Positions 8,152 through 18,391 of a stretch of 64,000 nucleotides of DNA are shown here, piece by piece. The position numbers were made by a program, and so were the translations under genes. The stretch covers positions 3,390 through 67,389 of the forward strand of contig JAHILA010000014.1 of NCBI GenBank assembly GCA_018897295.1, read 5' to 3'. The stretch's first letter is position 1; every line of letters begins with the position of its first letter. The notes under the pieces were generated by a model, which saw nothing but the letters and a program-made list of their open reading frames with translations, did no database searches and was not told the origin of the DNA. The DNA is from Patescibacteria group bacterium (lineage in GTDB: Bacteria; Patescibacteriota; Minisyncoccia; RBG-13-40-8-A).

Positions 8152-8222
8152 ATCAGTGTTTATGTTTATTGTTTATGTTTATTGCGGTTTATTACATTTA
8201 TATATCCTGTATTTGTATACAT

Positions 8223-8250
8223 TTCTTCACGATCGAGAAAAAGTGTATAT
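8223..8250 (+). promoter_or_regulatory. Copy 1 of a 28-bp motif, TTCTTcACGATCGaGAAAAagTGTATAT
   Basis: It is near-identical to the motif at 8900-8927 and contains the palindrome CGATCG and a TGTATAT(A) -10-like end. Confidence 0.5.
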
Positions 8251-8280
8251 TTTTTTAAAATAATATGTTATGATGTATTT

Positions 8281-8841
8281 ATGAAATATAAATTACCGTT
8301 TACTGAAAAATTACTTTGGGATTTATATAATTTCAGCCATAAGACAGGAAGATTAATACTTAAAGCGCTTCCTAAAAAACATGGGTTGCCTTTTTCTAGT
8401 TTTAATATATTTAGAGATGAATGGACGAGTGAAAATAAGAATAAATATCTAAGAAAACAAAGTAGGAAAAAATTTGCCCTTTTAGTTTATCGACTTAAAA
8501 AGCAAGGGTATCTAAAAAAATTAAAAATTAAAGATAATTCAGCAATTGCGATTACTCAACAAGGACTAGATAAGATTTTAAGGATTAATTTTAAATTAAT
8601 GGATAAAAAAATCAGAAAAGATAATAAGTGGCAGATGGTTTTATTTGATATCCCTGAGGATAAGAGAAGAGGTAGGGATTTGTTTAGAAATGAATTAAAG
8701 TATCTAGGGTATAAAATGCTTCAAAAAAGTATTTGGGTTTGCCCATATGACACATTAAAAGAAACTAAGGATTTGATTAAAAGATATAATTTAGGAATTT
8801 GGGTAGAATTGCTTTTAGTTAATAAAATTGGGTTAAAGTAG
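8281..8841 (+). CDS. Winged-helix + Cas2/PaaX_C-fold protein; putative transcriptional regulator
   Basis: The C-terminal segment WQMVLFDIPEDKRRGRDLFRNELKYLGYKMLQKSIWVC matches the Cas2 / PaaX_C core pattern (hydrophobic-YD-...-R...-G-Q-SV-C). Start is taken at the internal Met (MKYKLP) rather than the track start 8182. Confidence 0.5.
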   Translation: MKYKLPFTEKLLWDLYNFSHKTGRLILKALPKKHGLPFSSFNIFRDEWTSENKNKYLRKQSRKKFALLVYRLKKQGYLKKLKIKDNSAIAITQQGLDKILRINFKLMDKKIRKDNKWQMVLFDIPEDKRRGRDLFRNELKYLGYKMLQKSIWVCPYDTLKETKDLIKRYNLGIWVELLLVNKIGLK

Positions 8842-9854: not shown

Positions 9855-12476
9855 ATGCGGTTGGATAAATTCACAACTAAAGCGCAGGAGGCATTGCAGG
9901 ATGCTCATGGCATTGCTTCGGAAAAAGGACAGCAGCAGGTTGATGCGCTTCATTTATTAAGAGCCCTACTCATACAGGAGGGATCTTTGGTTTTAGCTGT
10001 GTTCCAAAAATTAGGGAACAATATTGAGAAATTGGAAAAAGATATTGATATTGGATTAACAAAACTTCCCCATATTGCCATTGCAACTCCTGGAATGTTT
10101 CAGGCATATCTAACCCAGGAACTGGGAAAGATTTTAGAACAATCATTTAAAGAAGCGGAAAAATTAAAAGATGAGTTTGTTTCCACGGAACATTTTCTTT
10201 TGGGTATGCTTTTAATTCCCTCCAAAGTTAAAGATGTTCTGGAAAGCAACGGCTTAAATTATGATAAAGTTTTGAAAGTTCTGGCTGAACTTCGTGGAGG
10301 AGAACAAGTGACTGATATGGAGCCAGAAACCAAATATCAGGTTTTGGAAAAATATACCCGCAATTTAACTGAATTATCACGTCAGGAAAAACTAGACCCG
10401 GTTATTGGTCGGGACAATGAAATTAGGAGAGTAATGCAGGTTTTAAGCAGAAGAACAAAAAATAATCCGGTTTTAATCGGCGAAGCAGGCACAGGTAAAA
10501 CAGCTATTGTTGAAGGCCTTGCGCAGAGAATTGTCAGTTCTGACGTGCCAGAAACATTAAAGGAAAAAGAAATTATTGCTCTAGATTTGGGTAGCATGGT
10601 TGCAGGCACGAAATTCAGAGGAGAATTTGAAAGCAGATTAAAAGCTGCTTTAAGGGAGATTGACCGCGCAAAAGGCAAATTTATTTTATTTATTGATGAG
10701 CTTCATACTTTGGTTGGCGCTGGGGCAGCCGAAGGAGCGATTGATGCTTCTAATATGCTCAAGCCAGCCTTGGCCAGAGGAGAGCTTCATGCTATCGGCG
10801 CCACTACTTTAAAAGAATATCAGAAGTATATTGAAAAAGATCCTGCGTTGGAAAGAAGATTCCAGCCGATTTATGTCAAAGAACCGTCAGTTGAAGATGC
10901 TGTTGCTATGCTACGCGGAATCAAGGAAAAATACGAGGTCTATCATGGAGTGAGGATTACTGACCCGGCAATTATGGCTGCCGTAAACTTGTCTTCACGA
11001 TATATTTCTGATCGGTTTCTGCCGGATAAGGCAGTGGATTTAATGGATGAAGCAGCTTCTGCTTTGAGAATGGAAATCGACAGCATGCCTATTGAATTGG
11101 ACCAGATGAAAAGAAAGCAGATGAAACTGGAAATTGAAGCCAGGGCGCTAAAAATGGAAAAAGACGCTGATTCTAAAGAGGGATTAAAAGCAATTAAGCG
11201 AGAAATCGCCGAATTGAAAGAACAAAGCAGGGAAATGGAAATTCAGTGGAAAACAGAAAAAGATATTATTTCCAAAATCAGGCAGAATCAAAAACAAATG
11301 GAATCTTTAAAACAGGAAGCGGATATTACTGAAAGAAAAAGCGACTTACAAAAAGTAGCTGAAATCAGATATGGTAAAATTCCCCAATTAGAAAAAGAAA
11401 TCAAAGAAGAACAGAAAAAACTTTCTGGAATCCAGAAAAATAGACAGATTTTAAAAGAAGAAGTAAATGTTGAAGATGTGGCAAAGGTAGTTTCTCGCTG
11501 GACAGGAATTCCGGTTTATAAAATGCTGGAAGAGGAAACTTCCAAATTATCGCATATGGAGGATGAATTGGGAAGGCGAGTACTTGGACAGGATGAAGCA
11601 ATTTCTATTGTTTCTAATGCCACCAGGAGAAGCAGGGCAGGGATTTCTGAAGAGAACAGGCCAATTGGTTCATTTATGTTTCTCGGTCCCACAGGAGTGG
11701 GTAAGACCGAGTTAGCTTTGGCATTGGCTGAATTTATGTTTAATACTGAAGATGCAATTGTGCGTTTAGATATGTCCGAGTATATGGAGCGCCATACTGC
11801 TTCCAAGATTATTGGCTCCCCACCAGGCTATGTTGGCTATGAAGAAGGCGGGCAGCTGACCGAAATTGTCAGGCGTAGGCCATACAGCGTGATTCTTTTT
11901 GATGAGATTGAAAAAGCCCATCCTGAAGTTTTTAATATTTTATTACAGATTTTAGACAGGGGACGGCTTACTGATGCCAAGGGCCGGTTGGTTAATTTTA
12001 AGAATACAATTATAATTTTAACTTCCAATGTAGGCAGTGAAATGCTTCAGCAAATGGCAGAATTCGGTTTTTCTCATTCTGGAGAAGCGAAACAGAAAAA
12101 GCACGATGAAACAAAATCCAGAATTATGGAATCATTGAAAAACCAGTTCAGGCCGGAGTTTTTGAATCGTTTGGACGAGATTATTATCTTCAATGGCTTG
12201 GGCATTGAAGAGGTAAGGAAAATTGTTGATTTGCAGTTAAATTTAGTTGAAGAACGGTTGAAGCACAAGAAAATCAAAATTAATGTTTCGATTACTGCCA
12301 AGAATTTATTGGCTGAAAAGGGTTTTGACCCTGATTACGGAGTCAGGCCGTTAAAAAGAAAAATTCAGCAACTGGTCTTAGATCCATTAGCCAAAATGAT
12401 TGTTGAAGGAAAAATCAAAAACGGAGATAAGATTAAAGTAGATACGAAGGGGGAGAAAATAACCATAAACGCTTAG
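9855..12476 (+). CDS. clpB: ATP-dependent chaperone / disaggregase ClpB
   Basis: 873 aa. It has a Clp_N region, two AAA+ modules (GEAGTGKT and GPTGVGKTE Walker A) and a long coiled-coil middle domain. Confidence 0.95.
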
Positions 12477-12486
12477 TTGCCCACTA

Positions 12487-12515
12487 TTTACAAATTTTTA
12501 AAATACTGCTATACT
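12487..12515 (+). promoter_or_regulatory. Promoter-like element: TTTACA, 17 nt, TATACT
   Basis: Read directly. It is upstream of the 12554 ORF, which has a strong RBS. Confidence 0.4.
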
Positions 12516-12553
12516 AAAAATTCTGTTCATTTTATTAAATAAAGGAGAAAAGA

Positions 12554-12964
12554 ATGAAAAAATTAATTGTCAGTGAAGTGATTTCAGTTATTCTGGTTCT
12601 TGGAATTTTTCTGCTTATCTTTACCTTTCTTGACGGTTGGGAGAAGATTGGTTGGGAAAGATATGAAGTTGCTGTTGTCGCTGCTTTTACTGCTGCTGCT
12701 CTTGCTGTTTTTGCTGCTCTTGCCATTACTGTTGCTGTTTTTATTGTTGCCGCTGTTGCTACTCTTTTCGCTACTGTTGTTGCCGTTGCCATTCTTGCTG
12801 TTGCCGCTGATGCTTTCACTACTTTTGCTGTTGCTGCTGTTGCCGTTGTTGCTACTTTTGTTGTTCTTATTGTTATTATTGGTGACGAAAAGGACAAGTT
12901 TTCTTTAAGGGTAGAAGCAGTGGCTATAGTTATTCCTATTGTTCTGATTACCTTTTTTCACTGA
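12554..12964 (+). CDS. Small hydrophobic Ala/Val-rich low-complexity protein, probably membrane-embedded
   Basis: RBS AAGGAG is 6 nt before the ATG. The repeat region is read as NNT codons (GCT/GTT/ACT/ATT/CTT/TTT), which gives strong triplet periodicity in this frame. Confidence 0.4.
   Translation: MKKLIVSEVISVILVLGIFLLIFTFLDGWEKIGWERYEVAVVAAFTAAALAVFAALAITVAVFIVAAVATLFATVVAVAILAVAADAFTTFAVAAVAVVATFVVLIVIIGDEKDKFSLRVEAVAIVIPIVLITFFH
12660..12890 (+). repeat. Cryptic (GYT)n trinucleotide low-complexity tract
   Basis: Runs of gct/gtt/gcc/act were read directly. It produces ORFs in three frames. Confidence 0.8.
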
Positions 12965-12999
12965 ACATTTGACCATTTAATTTAAAAAAGGAGGAGAGA

Positions 13000-13218
13000 A
13001 TGATAAAAGCTGTTTTGAGAGAGAGGGGAATAATTCAATTAGTGCCAGGAAACGATGCAGAGGAAGAGCGAGTTAGGGTATTCGCTCTAGAAAAAGGTAT
13101 TGACGAGGACGATTTTTGCGGAAAAGTAAGTATAAGTCTATCGCCACCAATTATTTGTCGAGGCAGAAGGGTAAAGAGGAGAACTCTTAATATCCGTCTA
13201 CTTTGTCGAAGGCGTTAA
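13000..13218 (+). CDS. Hypothetical small protein (72 aa) with an Arg-rich C-terminus; an ncRNA cannot be excluded
   Basis: It has a strong RBS (AAAAGGAGGAGAGA-ATG) and is followed by a clean terminator. The region is locally GC-richer and no homolog was recognised. Confidence 0.3.
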   Translation: MIKAVLRERGIIQLVPGNDAEEERVRVFALEKGIDEDDFCGKVSISLSPPIICRGRRVKRRTLNIRLLCRRR

Positions 13219-13233
13219 AAAAAAGAAAGAAAT

Positions 13234-13275
13234 GGGGCAACAACCGAAAGGATGTTGCCCCTAATTTTTTTATTT
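13234..13275 (+). terminator. Rho-independent terminator
   Basis: GGGGCAACA, loop accgaaagga, TGTTGCCCC, then TAATTTTTTT. Confidence 0.8.
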
Positions 13276-13295
13276 GATATATTTAAATAGACAGT

Positions 13296-13856
13296 ATGGA
13301 TAACATTCCAACAATTGACAGAGAAAAAGAATTGCTTTCTCAGATTGCTTCGGGGGATAAAGAGGCCTTTGGCCAACTTTATGATTTATACGCCCCGAGG
13401 ATTTTCCGTTTCATCCGACTAAAGGTCGGTTCGCAGGTTTTGGCAGAGGACTTATCATCAGAATCTTTCTTAAGAATCTGGGAATATCTTAAAAACCCGG
13501 AGATAAGAATAGAGGAGACATTCCAAGCGCTTTTATATAAAGTTGCCAGAAATCTGATTATTGATTATTACAAGAAAAAAAGCTCGCAGGAGGTTCTTAT
13601 TGGCGATGATTTCCATTTATTTTTAAATGAGGAGCCGGCTAAAGATGAGATTGCTTCCAAAGAAACATCTGACCAGATTCACAGGGCAATAATACGCATC
13701 AAAGAAGAGTATCAGGATGTCTTAATCTTGTATTATATTGATGGGCTTTCAGTACCACAAATCGCCAAAACAATGGATAAATCGCAGGGCGCAATCAGGG
13801 TGTTGATTCATAGAGGTTTGAAGTCCCTAAAAGAGCATTTATCAGAAGAGGAGTAA
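13296..13856 (+). CDS. RNA polymerase sigma-70 factor, ECF (sigma-24) subfamily
   Basis: 186 aa with a region-2 pattern (FRFIRLKV...) and a region-4 HTH (LSVPQIAKTMDKSQGAIRVLIHRGLKSLKE). Confidence 0.85.
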   Translation: MDNIPTIDREKELLSQIASGDKEAFGQLYDLYAPRIFRFIRLKVGSQVLAEDLSSESFLRIWEYLKNPEIRIEETFQALLYKVARNLIIDYYKKKSSQEVLIGDDFHLFLNEEPAKDEIASKETSDQIHRAIIRIKEEYQDVLILYYIDGLSVPQIAKTMDKSQGAIRVLIHRGLKSLKEHLSEEE

Positions 13857-13940: not shown

Positions 13941-14714
13941 ATGGATGAATTTATTGTCAAACAACTGAAAAATTTAAGAAAGGTTAGGCCGTCCACTTCT
14001 TGGCTGGAAAGTCAAAGAAGTTTTTTGCTATCTAAAATAGCGCAAAACAAACCAGAGGAAAAGAAAAGCATTTTTACTTTTCCTATTTTTAATATTTCAA
14101 AACTATTCAGGCCAGTATTCGTGGTAGCTATGGTTCTGATTGTTTTTGCAAGTTCGTTGGGAACCATTGGCGTAATCAGCGCTGCCCAGAATAGTTTGCC
14201 TGGAGACGCATTATATGTCTTGAAAACAACATTTGAAAAAACCCAAATGACCTTTGCTTACGGCGACCAGAACAAGGTTGAACTTTCAATAAAATTTGCC
14301 ACCCAGAGAATGGACGAATTTGCGCAAGTGGCAAGCAAGCCGGAAAAAAGAGATGATATTGAAAAAACAGTTCAAAATTTAAATGCGCAGTTAGTTACTG
14401 TTCAGGAAAATATGGATAAATTAAAAGACAAGAACTCCGAGAAAGCAGCTGAAGTGGCGAGATTAATCAGCAACCAAACTAATTCTTATAAAGAGACATT
14501 AATTAAAACAAGTAATCAATTGGCTTATCTGATGCCGGAAGAAAGCAAGAAAATAAAAGCAGAAATTGACCAAGCATTAATTGAAGTTGACAAAACACAG
14601 GAAAAAGCGGAACAGATAATCAAGACAGAAGAAGATAAAACAGAAGAAACGCCCGTAGAAGAAACAATTATTTCACCTTCTTCAAGCTTTGAAGAAGTTA
14701 ACGAAATAAAATAA
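13941..14714 (+). CDS. Putative anti-sigma / sigma-associated single-pass membrane protein (DUF5667-like)
   Basis: It lies directly downstream of the ECF sigma. It has one TM helix, a PGDALYVLK motif and a coiled-coil, acidic C-terminus. Confidence 0.5.
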   Translation: MDEFIVKQLKNLRKVRPSTSWLESQRSFLLSKIAQNKPEEKKSIFTFPIFNISKLFRPVFVVAMVLIVFASSLGTIGVISAAQNSLPGDALYVLKTTFEKTQMTFAYGDQNKVELSIKFATQRMDEFAQVASKPEKRDDIEKTVQNLNAQLVTVQENMDKLKDKNSEKAAEVARLISNQTNSYKETLIKTSNQLAYLMPEESKKIKAEIDQALIEVDKTQEKAEQIIKTEEDKTEETPVEETIISPSSSFEEVNEIK

Positions 14715-14749: not shown

Positions 14750-17700
14750 ATGAAAAAATTATTATCGATTACATTAGCTATCACGACAATTGTTTGGCTG
14801 GCTGGTTCATTTATATATGTCCCAGCTGCTCACGCTGCTGTTGTTGATGGCGACGTTGTAAGCCCTGATGCCACATTTGTTGACGCTGATGGAAACACAT
14901 ACTATCCGTATGATGTTTTTATTGTCAAAATAATTGGCACCAAGACCTTCAAACGTTTAGTTTTAAACCCGCAAGTTTTTGAAAGTTACGGCCACTTAAA
15001 GTGGAGTAATATCAAAACAATCTCAGCTGAGACCGTTAAAGGTTATACTACATCTGCTCTAGTAAGAGCGATTGATGATAGCCCTGTTTATGTGCTCGCT
15101 CCGAATGGAGACAGTGGTACAAAGCAGTGGGTTGATGATTTAACTTGCTTCAATTCAAAGAGTTATGACTGGGATTCAGTTTATACGATTAACGCAACAG
15201 ACAGAGACAATTACTCAACTACAACAAGTTTGTGCGGAACAGGTGGCGGAGCTTTGACGCTTTCATTAGCTTCAGACACACCAGCTGCTTCCACACTTCC
15301 TAACACTGCTCAAGGTGTAACCTTTGTCAAATACAATTTAACAGGTTCAGGAACATTAAACCAGATTGTATTCAAAAGAGATGGAGCTGGCGCTGTTGCA
15401 GATTTTGACGACCTCTACATTTACAAAGATGGAGTTCGTTTAACATCGGGCAGGTCAATTACCACTTCAACCAGTAAGGTTACCTTTATTAATTTAGGAA
15501 TTGTTGCTCCAGCTACATTTGAATTAGTAGCTGACATCAGCGGAACAGCTGGTAATGTTAACTATTTCACTGTTGAAATTGCTTCTGATGTTGTTGCTGA
15601 CACAACTGTTAGCGGAACATTTCCAATTAAGAGTAACACAATGGGAATCAGCGGTACTGCTGCTGGCACAATAACTGTTGCCAGGACTGGCTCTGCTACA
15701 AAAAATGTCACCATTGGCGCCTTAGAACAAGAGATTTCTCAATTTAAGGTAACTGTTGCCACTGAAGGAGCTAATGTCTACAGAATTCAATTATTCAACG
15801 GTGGGACAGCAGACAATAATCTAATTACTAATCTTAAACTTAAAGACAATACAGGAGCAACTGTAGCCACAGCCACAAGTATTGGCTCTAGTGGTTATGT
15901 TTCTTTTGTTTTCAGCACACCTTATTATATTCTAAAAGGTGAAAATGAAATTTTCCACATTTATGCTGATATTGGCGCAACAAAACCAGACAGAACAATT
16001 ATTCTCTATCAGGAATTGGCAACCGATATTTTGGCAAAAGGAACTACTTATGGTTATGGCATGACAGCCACTATTACTAGCTTTGATGCTACTGGTGATG
16101 CTGTTACTGTTACTTGTAAGGGTGGTGACTTAACCTTAAACAAAGTTGGTCCAAATGCCACAAGCATTGGAACTACAACTTCTGACACTGTATTCCTTGA
16201 ATACACAATGTCAGCAGCTGCTGACATTACCATTAAAAGAACAGAATTGATATTCTGTGAGGACACTGATGGCAATGGCACATACAATAACGCTTCCACT
16301 AGTGCTGGCGCTGACATTGAAGATATTAAGATAAAAGAAAAAGACAGCGGAGCCATTGTAATTGGTCCAAAAGACGGAACTTCGTTTAATGACGGTGTCA
16401 GGGCTTCTTGTCCTGGAAGTGTTAACGGTCTTTACGAAGCCTATACTGACACTATTGATTTAGCCGCTGGCACAACAAGAACTTTCCAGGTAACTGCTGA
16501 TATTAAGACCTCTAACACTAATAGTGGTCAACACATAGTGGCTAGTTCCAGAATTAAATTTATTCTTTACAGCTATGCTACAATGATTGGCACTACAGGT
16601 AATGTAAGTTATGTGAAGTATGCCGGAACAAGCGATGCTGTTGATGATTCGGCAATTGCTCCGTCAGGAGATATTGCTGGAGAAGAAATGACTATTGCCG
16701 CAGCAAGCTTAGCTATTACCTTGTCGGCAAGTCCATCAGGAGGTGATGTTACTGCAAATGAAAAAGTATATATCAAGGGCCAGGGCGGAGTAGAAGCAGC
16801 TGGATTCGTATTCACTGCTGGTTCGGCTTCTGATATTACAATCAGCACGATTCAGTTGACTGCTTATACAACAGAAAACACTGCAGTTGCATTGATTGCA
16901 GGAAAAGATACTAATTATGTTAAAGATACTGTTGGCAGTGTTTATATCTATGATAAAGACACTGGAGCAATGGTTCCTGGTTCATCCGCAAAAGGATTCA
17001 CCAGTGGAACAAACTATGAAAATGTTGATTTTACTGGTTTGAGTTGGACAATCACAGCCGGGAACTCCAAGACATTATTGGTAAAAACCGATATTTCTTC
17101 AGCTGCTCCAGCCAGCGCGTCTACAGCAGACACCTGGATTGGATTTGACATTCTTGATGTCAGCGCTGATGTTTCAGCTGTTGACGTAGATGGCAATTCA
17201 GTTGACGGAACAGGCGATGCTTCAAACCCATTAGCTGCTACTGTTAACTACGGTGTTGCTGAATATGGCTCATTGGCAGTTGTCGTTGCTTCTGACACGC
17301 CAGATAAAAGTTTGGCGGTTATGGGCACTACTGATAACGAGGTTTCCAAGTTCAAGCTTACTGGAACTAATGAGGCCTGGTACATTGAGACATTCTCAAT
17401 TGTGCTTGACGATGGCCAAGACGTTAGCTTAGACGACACAGATAACTTCAGCGCACTTAAGCTTAAGTACCAAACCCAAGCTCAGTGGGGTTCAAGTGAC
17501 TGGACAATCAGCACGGGCAAGACCTTTGCGAGTACAGCCAGTTTAGCTTTTTCCTTTACTGGTACTGATAGGATTTATATTCCTAAAGATGATAATTCCT
17601 TTGTCACTGTTTTAGCTAGTATTGATAGCTATGATGGTGGTTCTGGAGGAAAGTCAAAAGTTCCTTTTAGAATGTATCCTATTTCCGGTAGCACTAACTC

Positions 17701-18391
17701 ATTCAAGGTCTATGGCGCTCAATCAGGCAAGCAGTTGTCCACGTTTACTGATCCAACTAGCACAGATTACAATCTGCACTTCGTAACTCGCTCTAAGCCG
17801 GTGTTTGCTAAAGTATCAAGCACTGCTACAAACGAGTTAGCCAGATTTACCATCACTGCTGTTGGTTATGATGTTGTCTTTGACGGAACAGCAGGTACCG
17901 AGATAGACATTGCTAGCGCATGCTTGAGGTTTGATGTTGTTGCTTCAACAACTGACGATGCCACTGTTAATCTTTATCTTTATGACTGGAATGAAAATAT
18001 CGTTGCCAGTAGAGAAGCATTGGGTAGTTTAACCGGAAGTGTAACTAGCGTTTCCTTCGTATTTGAAGAGAAAGATGTTACTATTCCGAGTGGCACAACT
18101 AGAGAACTTCACGTTGACTTGGCTGCAGCAGATGCAAGTACTGACTTCTTAAAGACAGACGAATTCATCTATTTGCAGTTGAGAAATGATGATGGAGGCA
18201 ATTTGGCCACTGGTTCAATGGGCTTCGGAGAAAGAGATATTGTTTGGCACGATAGTACAGCCGAAGAAGGTATAAGTACTGTTGATGGAGATGCAAGCGC
18301 CGAGAGCAGATATGGTATGCCATCTCTGATTAAGAACATTGGCCCATTGCCAATTACTTTCACAATCTTGAGAGGAACAGCAACTCCATAA
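14750..18391 (+). CDS. Giant secreted surface protein (1213 aa) with a shared N-terminal 'KRL-x-LNP' module followed by long Thr/Ser/Gly/Ala-rich beta-rich repeats; S-layer or adhesin-like
   Basis: It has a signal peptide ending in AHA|A. The N-terminal roughly 120 aa are homologous to modules in the 18594, 23076 and 59011 proteins. The rest is low-complexity and Ig-like. Confidence 0.7.
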   Translation: MKKLLSITLAITTIVWLAGSFIYVPAAHAAVVDGDVVSPDATFVDADGNTYYPYDVFIVKIIGTKTFKRLVLNPQVFESYGHLKWSNIKTISAETVKGYTTSALVRAIDDSPVYVLAPNGDSGTKQWVDDLTCFNSKSYDWDSVYTINATDRDNYSTTTSLCGTGGGALTLSLASDTPAASTLPNTAQGVTFVKYNLTGSGTLNQIVFKRDGAGAVADFDDLYIYKDGVRLTSGRSITTSTSKVTFINLGIVAPATFELVADISGTAGNVNYFTVEIASDVVADTTVSGTFPIKSNTMGISGTAAGTITVARTGSATKNVTIGALEQEISQFKVTVATEGANVYRIQLFNGGTADNNLITNLKLKDNTGATVATATSIGSSGYVSFVFSTPYYILKGENEIFHIYADIGATKPDRTIILYQELATDILAKGTTYGYGMTATITSFDATGDAVTVTCKGGDLTLNKVGPNATSIGTTTSDTVFLEYTMSAAADITIKRTELIFCEDTDGNGTYNNASTSAGADIEDIKIKEKDSGAIVIGPKDGTSFNDGVRASCPGSVNGLYEAYTDTIDLAAGTTRTFQVTADIKTSNTNSGQHIVASSRIKFILYSYATMIGTTGNVSYVKYAGTSDAVDDSAIAPSGDIAGEEMTIAAASLAITLSASPSGGDVTANEKVYIKGQGGVEAAGFVFTAGSASDITISTIQLTAYTTENTAVALIAGKDTNYVKDTVGSVYIYDKDTGAMVPGSSAKGFTSGTNYENVDFTGLSWTITAGNSKTLLVKTDISSAAPASASTADTWIGFDILDVSADVSAVDVDGNSVDGTGDASNPLAATVNYGVAEYGSLAVVVASDTPDKSLAVMGTTDNEVSKFKLTGTNEAWYIETFSIVLDDGQDVSLDDTDNFSALKLKYQTQAQWGSSDWTISTGKTFASTASLAFSFTGTDRIYIPKDDNSFVTVLASIDSYDGGSGGKSKVPFRMYPISGSTNSFKVYGAQSGKQLSTFTDPTSTDYNLHFVTRSKPVFAKVSSTATNELARFTITAVGYDVVFDGTAGTEIDIASACLRFDVVASTTDDATVNLYLYDWNENIVASREALGSLTGSVTSVSFVFEEKDVTIPSGTTRELHVDLAAADASTDFLKTDEFIYLQLRNDDGGNLATGSMGFGERDIVWHDSTAEEGISTVDGDASAESRYGMPSLIKNIGPLPITFTILRGTATP

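Follow-up and report, generated by a model that had tools for sequence, protein, structure and literature searches.

A stretch of 64,000 nt from a Patescibacteria group bacterium (contig JAHILA010000014.1; the whole stretch is called the window below) contains, on its plus strand, an open reading frame (ORF) of 136 codons whose centre is built largely of GYT triplets. The question raised by this locus is whether such a tract, which can be read without a stop in frame +1, in frame +2 and also on the minus strand, as an original prediction made from the sequence had stated, belongs to a gene at all and, if it does, what keeps its third codon position so uniform. The answer we consider likely is that the ORF is a real member of a gene family, in which two conserved end modules enclose a hydrophobic centre that derives from a repeat, varies in length in frame, and has its third-position pyrimidines maintained. 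To judge from the sequence, the locus is probably a stand-alone gene for a small polytopic inner-membrane protein of Patescibacteria (the candidate phyla radiation, CPR), and its expression is probably strong. The features on which the argument turns are the following:

12554–12964, plus strand: coding sequence of a 136-aa small membrane protein, stop codon included (from the ORF listing, relatives, and purifying selection on the end modules)
12554–12664, plus strand: N-terminal module comprising MKK, transmembrane helix 1 (TM1, about residues 9–26) and a GWEK..G.ERY loop (conserved columns)
12668–12883, plus strand: degenerate (GYT)n tract of 216 nt, codons 39–110, encoding three predicted Ala/Val-rich helices (codon statistics, mRNA folding, relatives and model)
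12884–12961, plus strand: C-terminal module comprising a charged loop, DEKDK..R, and the last transmembrane helix with Glu121 and Pro128 (conserved columns; model helix 112–134)
12487–12515, plus strand: promoter-like site (-35 TTTACA at 12487–12492, a 17-nt spacer, and a TG-extended -10 TATACT at 12510–12515)
12542–12547, plus strand: Shine-Dalgarno sequence AAGGAG, read in the sequence 6 nt 5′ of the ATG

The gene, its family and its product

The tract contains 20 GCT, 18 GTT, seven ACT, six GCC, six ATT, five TTT, five CTT and two TTC codons, and one each of GTC, GAT and GGT. NYT codons make up 61 of the 72, so the pattern described in the original prediction, which had put it at some 230 bp, does hold over the 216 nt measured here; 63 codons end in T and none in a purine. 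For this amino-acid sequence, the codon usage observed in 49 other genes of the window would predict 31.8 T-ending codons (z = 7.8), and none of 200,000 simulations got to 63. The best 72-codon stretch in the other frames and strands of the window holds 39 NYT codons, and the top 72-codon stretch elsewhere in it holds 38 codons ending in T. The uninterrupted run of NNY triplets extends over 73 codons, while the other 56 genes of the window reach a maximum of 24 (median 9). The choice of codon is correspondingly narrow: GCT is used for 20 of 26 Ala and GTT for 18 of 19 Val residues, and all five Leu residues are encoded by CTT, which accounts for 17% of Leu codons elsewhere in the window. Ala and Val together make up 45 of the 72 residues (62%), the remainder being Thr, Ile, Phe and Leu with one Asp and one Gly. 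The product was first described as Ala/Val-only with charged ends; the tract is indeed hydrophobic and Ala/Val-rich, but not restricted to these two residues, and the charges lie in the loops beside it and in the N-terminal MKK rather than at both ends. Neither is its GC content (0.44) anomalous, as had been supposed, since it reaches just the 93rd percentile among 216-nt windows; the actual anomaly is a depletion of adenine (6.5% versus a mean of 33%), with an AT skew of about -0.6 and 50% U. Tandem Repeats Finder returned short, low-scoring periods of 9, 15 and 18 nt, indicating that the window tract is not a clean tandem array.

Sequence searches led first to a protein of 96% identity, present in three assemblies, and from there to ever more distant relatives. 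An exhaustive profile search over 1.84 billion representatives yielded 53 clusters (defined at 50% identity) at E ≤ 1e-3 and 18 at E ≤ 1e-10; a word-indexed search with a 32-sequence profile was swamped by low-complexity words and gained four usable proteins. The members of the family, which is defined here through two alignments (A3 and A5), are all about 95–180 aa long and have one common architecture: MKK followed by a hydrophobic helix, an (N)GW(E)K..G.ERY loop, a hydrophobic centre, a charged and usually K-rich loop, and a last helix. The window protein aligns to the family over its full length (family hidden Markov model, HMM, E = 1.4e-32). At the N-terminal end, positions F19, F23, G28, W29, E30, K31, E35, R36 and Y37 are invariant or nearly so. 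The last helix follows the pattern S-L-x-V-E-A-x-x-I-x-x-P-I-x-L-I-T-F, which in the window protein reads FSLRVEAVAIVIPIVLITFFH; L118 and E121 are near-invariant among 32 sequences, and A122, I125 and P128 are invariant within the close subfamily.

Over the two end modules, the ratio of nonsynonymous to synonymous substitution rates (dN/dS) was 0.08–0.6 and mostly 0.1–0.4, with a mean proportion of synonymous differences (pS) of 0.57 compared with 0.19 for nonsynonymous ones (pN); synonymous sites of these modules are near saturation across the family. Such low ratios indicate that frame 1 is translated and under purifying selection, which bears out the original view of a translated, very hydrophobic membrane protein. 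Further, three relatives found through the N-terminal 37 residues alone (loci L013, L015 and L017) all run in frame into the conserved C-terminal module. By this conservation, the two terminal helices with their loops are the functional parts of the protein, and the near-invariant, buried Glu121 and the GW..ERY loop appear to be the best candidates for functional residues. The family had no match in Pfam, NCBIfam, PHROGs or PADLOC, and no significant match among PDB sequences and folds (the best sequence-profile hit, MakB, had E = 0.35 and is noise). Patterns of the family, which would catch the close subfamily only, detected no relative among GTDB species representatives, and in the literature no relevant description of an Ala/Val-rich CPR membrane protein or of a hydrophobic repeat protein was found. 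In the window gene, a 15-nt tandem duplication at 12635–12662 (GGTTGGGAGAAGATT / GGTTGGGAAAGAT) encodes GWEKI/GWER; the first loop looks like a duplicated GW-E-K/R motif in the window lineage, other members having GWEKxGQER.

The strong ribosome binding site (RBS) and the promoter-like element reported at the outset are both present. The latter resembles a sigma-70 promoter (10 of 12 matches, with TG ahead of the -10), and the family members for which upstream DNA was available each have a TTGACA-like / TGnTATAAT-like promoter of their own at the same distance from the start as in the window. AAGGAG, GGAGG or GAGG precedes the ATG or TTG start in all family members. Short inverted repeats lie between the -10 and the Shine-Dalgarno sequence in several relatives: TGATAATTGAATTATCA in the leaders of L008, L015 and L017 (about 4360–4380 in L008 and about 2590–2610 in L017), and CTGATTATTATCAG in those of L007 and L013. 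These repeats might serve as an operator or form a hairpin in the leader; the window leader has no obvious counterpart.

An AlphaFold2 model built from a 32-sequence alignment predicted five helices (residues 2–25, 34–58, 63–84, 87–109 and 112–134; mean pLDDT 78, pTM 0.63). The shortest member (108 aa) was modelled with three, its centre forming one long helix (34–73; pLDDT 82). Basic residues (MKK) mark the N-terminus, the first loop carries a net negative charge, and most members have a K-rich last loop; this charge pattern suggests a topology with the N-terminus inside, the first loop outside, the last loop inside and the C-terminus outside. In such a topology the two charged loops, acidic first and K-rich last, face opposite sides of the membrane, which requires the number of central helices to be odd; the models, with one in the shortest member and three in the window protein, would fit. 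The centre itself may be just a hydrophobic spacer made of helices.

Two other identities of the product were considered. The original prediction had raised a toxin of a type I toxin–antitoxin (TA)-like pair, and a membrane-damaging protein of that or of a holin-like kind, controlled by an antisense RNA or a partner gene, would agree with a small, extremely hydrophobic protein with a strong promoter and RBS, with a sporadic distribution that includes several copies in some metagenomes, and with the leader inverted repeat of several relatives, should this be an operator. Type I toxins, however, are usually shorter than 60 aa and have a single hydrophobic helix, whereas this protein has 136 aa and five predicted helices. 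No minus-strand promoter-like site was found in 12300–13400, and Rfam gave no relevant match in that interval (two sub-threshold chance matches lie downstream of the gene). No neighbour is conserved within 1.5 kb across the loci, PADLOC, PHROGs and viral contigs were all without a match, and the end modules have been under long-term purifying selection across 53 clusters; a toxin is thus very unlikely. We judge it highly improbable that the real product lies in another frame or strand, arising by internal initiation or frameshifting or from the minus strand. The two ORFs concerned are:

12600–12908, plus strand, frame +2: poly-Leu ORF of 102 aa that results from the triplet pattern; not a conserved product
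12535–12897, minus strand: Thr/Ala-rich ORF of 120 aa that results from the (GYT)n/(ARC)n pattern; not a gene

Both are open, and because the T at position 3 of frame 1 is position 2 of frame +2, the variation observed, which lies at positions 1 and 2 of frame 1, is largely synonymous for Leu; in most members, moreover, the ERY motif creates a +2 ATG directly before the tract. But this ATG is lacking in L007 and is followed by a stop four codons later in L006, and the +2 frame stops short of the conserved C-terminal module. Position 1 is G in 65–92% of codons, which fits Ala, Val and Gly and not the Leu usage of the genome (TTA 37%, TTG 26%). No promoter was seen on the minus strand, and the dN/dS of the flanks fits frame 1 alone. 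At L018 (2138–2617) a gene caller placed the first of two tandem family copies on the minus strand (2209–2586, 125 aa), while the family HMM matches the plus strand; the 120-aa antisense ORF of the window is an artefact of the same type.

Length variation of the centre

The centres of the family members measure 34, 72, 75, 77, 79, 80, 83, 93, 103 and 105 codons and are not alignable with one another. The closest view of how they change comes from L008, L015 and L017, all from one metagenome assembly (GCA_004196315.1), with tracts of 75, 105 and 80 codons. In these three, the promoter, the leader, both end modules and 23 nt past the stop codon are about 95–100% identical in three different upstream contexts; within the tracts, G at position 1 and T at position 3 are kept while position 2 (C or T) is scrambled. 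Where the tracts of L008 and L017 are alignable, the difference consists of one inserted GCT codon and a deleted GTT. Larger steps separate other pairs: proteins P0008 and P0010 are identical save for a 37-residue in-frame block between two VTAAVIAVGA repeats, and P0015 and P0022 are identical save for a 31-residue in-frame block between two AAVVAA repeats. Internal duplications beyond those of codon-shuffled controls were present in five of 11 tracts, the longest being 39 nt and exact. Every length change observed is a multiple of three inside the coding sequence, leaving the C-terminal module in frame.

These differences are consistent with a centre that would descend from a (GCT/GTT)n triplet repeat and evolve as single codons and blocks of 20–110 nt are gained or lost in frame, through slipped-strand mispairing or recombination between direct repeats. 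Gain and loss of this kind would produce the family's centres of 34 to about 105 residues. As repeat units, GCT and GTT fall into the CTG.CAG and TTG.CAA classes, which are well known to be unstable because they form slipped-strand structures.

In the lineage of the window the tract behaves differently. Its closest relative, 97.6% identical (L002–L004), has a tract of equal length with two differences in 216 nt; of the 10 differences in all, none falls in the N-terminal module and eight lie in the 81 nt that follow the tract. By its sequence, the window tract is an old, degenerate and currently stable descendant of a repeat. The suggestion that the tract is prone to expansion, and that its length should vary among orthologues, therefore stands at the level of the family, where the cryptic (GYT)n repeat varies (34–105 codons) even between close relatives, and finds no support in this genome, where the tract is currently stable and as long as in its close relative. 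A fast contingency tract in the window genome is accordingly not supported, and neither is a strict contingency locus switched on and off by frameshift or promoter spacing, all changes being in frame.

The three related copies show some further peculiarities. They form a cassette of about 620–700 bp, which runs from the promoter and leader through the gene to 23 nt past its stop codon (L008 4243–4860, L015 3244–3900, L017 2486–3102), and both L008 and L015 end at this last position, as though the assembler broke at a repeat; the cassette could be multi-copy or mobile. L009 matches L008 at 100% in two segments (L009 1–566 and 926–980 to L008 4295–4860 and 1–55) with 359 nt between them, so L008, which carries genes with PEP-utilizers, PPDK_N and Trypsin_2 domains besides the family gene, could represent a circle of about 5.2 kb or be bounded by a repeat. 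In the comparison of L015 1–543 with L017 1840–2580, L015 starts with the 3′ end of rpoD and the promoter/leader that precedes the family gene in L017, which here drives an unrelated membrane ORF of 83 aa (292–543). The GIY-YIG ORF of L017 (2016–2285) is absent from L015, suggesting a mobile GIY-YIG insertion.

Third-position pyrimidines and folding of the transcript

The uniform third position is not peculiar to the window gene. In every family member the codons of the centre end predominantly in a pyrimidine (fraction Y3, 0.81–0.99; 0.99 in the window tract), with a fraction ending in T (T3) of 0.49–0.99, as compared with a T3 of 0.22–0.48 in the conserved ends of the same genes. All 75 tract codons of L008 and all 80 of L017 end in T. 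A flank dS of about 0.1 among L008, L015 and L017 predicts some 10 third-position differences between the L008 and L017 tracts, and no codon with a third base other than T was seen. TM1 and the fifth helix (TM5) of the same genes show no third-position bias; since, in addition, other stretches of the window contain at most 38 T-ending codons, the bias is not a general property of transmembrane segments. The saturation of synonymous sites in the flanks, together with the complete lack of non-T codons in the trio, argues that the third-position pyrimidine is not a neutral leftover.

This composition has a marked effect on predicted RNA folding. The minimum free energy (MFE) of the tract RNA was -23.1 kcal/mol, compared with -75.5 ± 5.5 kcal/mol for synonymous recodings drawn from the codon usage of the window (z = 9.6); shuffling the order of the codons changed it little (-26 kcal/mol). 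The other centres rich in Ala, Val and Gly behaved likewise (z = 4.8–9.6 family-wide), whereas the N-terminal modules of these genes gave z values from -3 to 0.9. The recodings of other members borrowed the codon usage of the window and are an approximation. In members with centres of ordinary composition the effect fades (z = 0.9–2.4).

A mechanism can be proposed in which a pyrimidine, mostly U, would be actively maintained at third positions. The G-rich codons for Ala, Val and Gly would pair strongly with one another if the wobble base were A, G or C; with U in third position and almost no A, the only partners left to G would be the C of Ala codons or a wobble U. In a tract whose G residues lack pairing partners, the mRNA would be very rich in U and would hardly fold, and the DNA, with its asymmetric strands, would be similarly poor in hairpins when single-stranded. 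Selection for such an unstructured, U-rich coding region is the cause of third-position U that we favour, and homogenising of the units through rapid repeat turnover may contribute.

Three other explanations for the fixed third position were weighed against this one. It could be passive: in a microsatellite-like (GCT/GTT)n, slippage would homogenise the units before drift could act, and selection on the protein would keep the Ala/Val mix alone. The scrambled, length-variable tracts of L008, L015 and L017 between nearly identical flanks do indicate that turnover outpaces point substitution, internal duplications exist, and the fall of T3 from 0.99 to 0.49 as centres grow complex is what decay from a pure repeat would give; we grant this explanation an appreciable, if minor, chance. 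It fits poorly, however, with the Y3 of 0.81–0.92 that persists in the distant, complex and repeat-less centres of L012, L018, L019 and L020, the flanks in the family being near saturation at synonymous sites, and with a window tract that is stable and free of duplications and nevertheless has no purine-ending codon in 72; homogenisation ought, besides, to erase the C/T mix at position 2. A fixed pyrimidine next to variable positions 1 and 2 also recalls the variable codons of diversity-generating retroelements (DGRs), which derive from AAY template codons and are common in CPR bacteria. A DGR would, besides, have a reverse transcriptase close by and a template repeat that matches the variable region almost completely except at adenines. 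That the tract is a DGR variable region is barely conceivable, though: no second copy of it was found in the 64-kb window (the best BLASTN match was 33 nt, E = 0.01, and an adenine-tolerant scan gave noise), its length ranges over 34–105 codons whereas DGR mutagenesis does not alter length, and position 2 is limited to C or T instead of taking any base.

The third explanation is a U-rich mRNA signal, in which an RNA-binding protein, for example a cold-shock protein, would recognise the NNY/NYN run and deliver the mRNA to the membrane or stabilise it, low structure being secondary. SECReTE, a motif of at least 10 uninterrupted NNY (or NYN) triplets in secretome mRNAs, enhances membrane localisation of the mRNA, mRNA stability and protein output, and its enrichment has been reported in B. 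subtilis too (PMC6625729). The tract has runs of 73 NNY and 47 NYN triplets, compared with at most 24 and 20 in other genes of the window. E. coli CspE and CspC bind U-rich RNAs encoding transmembrane helices (PMC4520561), and an ORF with a cold-shock domain lies near one family member (L013 2675–2872). The function of the motif, on the other hand, has been demonstrated in yeast only, the absence of bias from the conserved TM1 and TM5 would be odd for a general membrane-targeting signal, and 26 of the 56 other genes of the window already have runs of 10 or more, making the threshold unspecific in an AT-rich genome. On balance this explanation is unlikely.

Several points weigh against a repeat-derived centre with maintained pyrimidines. 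The gene and its relatives are known from sequences and models, and the sequences come from metagenome assemblies, in which repeats can be mis-assembled. The window tract contains no duplication beyond chance (the longest is 12 nt; P = 0.86 against codon shuffles) and, as described above, is of equal length in its closest relative; slippage is thus deduced from other members of the family and not seen in the window lineage. A low folding energy follows from the composition whatever its cause and is not by itself proof of selection on RNA structure, the comparison beyond the window gene depends on the borrowed codon usage, and rapid repeat turnover (concerted evolution) could likewise keep T3 uniform. 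The AlphaFold2 model has its lowest confidence in the tract (pLDDT 60–75), and the program is blind to the membrane. Finally, the deletion alleles P0022 and P0010, with centres of 52–58 residues, fit the odd-helix rule poorly. This misfit is the basis for another reading, in which slippage would alter the number of helices (centres of about 35, 52–58, 72–83 and 93–105 residues) and might flip or re-register the C-terminal helix with its Glu. The tract would then be a heritable, reversible switch of topology or length, with the U-only wobble kept so that the repeat stays translatable, unstructured and expandable; we consider such a switch quite unlikely.

Genomic context and relation to known systems

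The ClpB encoded directly upstream of the gene is 83–87% identical to ClpB of Patescibacteria (CPR) metagenome-assembled genomes, and all family members with a readable context are bacterial. In L023 and L025 (ClpB 85% and 83% identical), clpB and a gene for an extracytoplasmic function (ECF) sigma factor are syntenic with the window, and an unrelated, non-hydrophobic ORF replaces the family gene and a 72-aa ORF in a slot of roughly 500 nt. This slot is variable: it spans 12477–13295 in the window and holds a 118-aa ORF in L023 (6623–7106) and a 108-aa ORF in L025 (2556–3056), which are both unrelated. The family HMM found no copy in any of 23 clpB loci, and the window holds one copy; conservation of the gene at the clpB–ECF sigma site was therefore rejected. 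Elsewhere, family genes follow rpoD and a GIY-YIG gene (L017), obgE (L013), or LTD and beta-helix surface proteins (L001), and in L018 and L019 they occur as tandem pairs. No neighbour within 1.5 kb is common to the loci, the 72-aa ORF being no conserved partner either, and a scan of viral contigs gave no family member. The gene is a sporadically distributed, stand-alone accessory gene.

Some features around the gene may be added. The 72-aa ORF (13000–13218) begins 35 nt 3′ of the gene, is preceded by a very strong Shine-Dalgarno sequence (AAGGAGGAG), is rich in Arg at its C-terminus, and matches no family; relatives of it were found only in the 97.6%-identical relative (L002–L004). There is no terminator-like site between the two. 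Upstream of clpB lies a gene for a 219-aa protein with a PaaX central / Cas2-like domain (8182–8841), to which weaker, paralogue-like matches occur downstream of clpB in the two closest genomes (L021 6822–7325 and L022 7027–7329). Beyond the slot follow the ECF sigma factor (13296–13856), a DUF5667 protein (13941–14714) and a 1213-aa ORF without any Pfam domain (14750–18391).

In-frame repeat variation in an envelope protein is, as a process, known already. What is new is that the repeat encodes the membrane helices themselves, that the CPR family had not been described, and that one wobble base is held over 70–100 codons with a measurable effect on RNA structure. The family is a natural example of a conserved gene in which a simple triplet repeat serves to build, lengthen and delete transmembrane helices, and it could show what number of helices a membrane protein tolerates and which sequences they may have. 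With its wobble base fixed over 70–100 consecutive codons and a folding effect of about 50 kcal/mol, it would also be an unusually clean case of selection at synonymous sites, which makes the hypotheses on RNA structure and on U-rich mRNA directly testable by recoding. For annotation, it illustrates several pitfalls, as the family is absent from domain databases, breaks metagenome assemblies and is prone to gene calls on the wrong strand.

Among known systems, the size variants of the Vlp/Vsa proteins of Mycoplasma and the Gly/Ala repeats of the mycobacterial PE_PGRS proteins are cases of in-frame repeat size variation in envelope proteins. They and CTG.CAG repeats resemble the present family in that a low-complexity coding region changes length in frame by slippage or by recombination between direct repeats; the resemblance is seen in the indels of one, 31 and 37 codons, in the versions of 75, 80 and 105 codons between near-identical flanks, and in GCT belonging to the CTG repeat class. 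The Vlp/Vsa and PE_PGRS repeats are, however, exposed, hydrophilic or Gly-rich, and associated with antigenic or size variation, while here membrane-embedded helices are concerned; further, the third base is fixed in the unit seen here, a degenerate G-Y-T of 3 nt, and the window copy does not vary at present.

With SECReTE and the CspE/CspC targets the tract shares, by analogy, unbroken pyrimidine-third triplets in the mRNA of a membrane protein; it has 50% U and 6.5% A. It differs in that its run is several-fold the longest in the window, is confined to the variable centre, and is absent from the conserved transmembrane helices. The fibroin of B. mori also has a biased choice of isocodons (GCU 71%, GGU 56%), reported in PMC4522600 with reference to work by Mita et al. 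(1988) on the structure of fibroin mRNA. In both cases the coding sequence is repetitive and rich in Ala and in G, and for each amino acid it prefers a single codon ending in U far more than the genome does, with a link to mRNA structure that, in the tract, would correspond to the calculated MFE shift of about 52 kcal/mol. But fibroin is a secreted fibre protein of a eukaryote and not a 136-aa bacterial membrane protein, and where PMC4522600 speaks of stability of mRNA structure and of tRNA adaptation, the measurement here gives a near-absence of structure. Finally, transmembrane segments have been described to arise de novo from thymine-rich sequence, as whole new ORFs in yeast intergenic DNA (PMC7005711). 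T-rich DNA readily encodes transmembrane helices in that case, and the tract shows simple T-rich repeats becoming membrane helices as well; here, however, the helices are added by repeat expansion within an existing, conserved bacterial gene.

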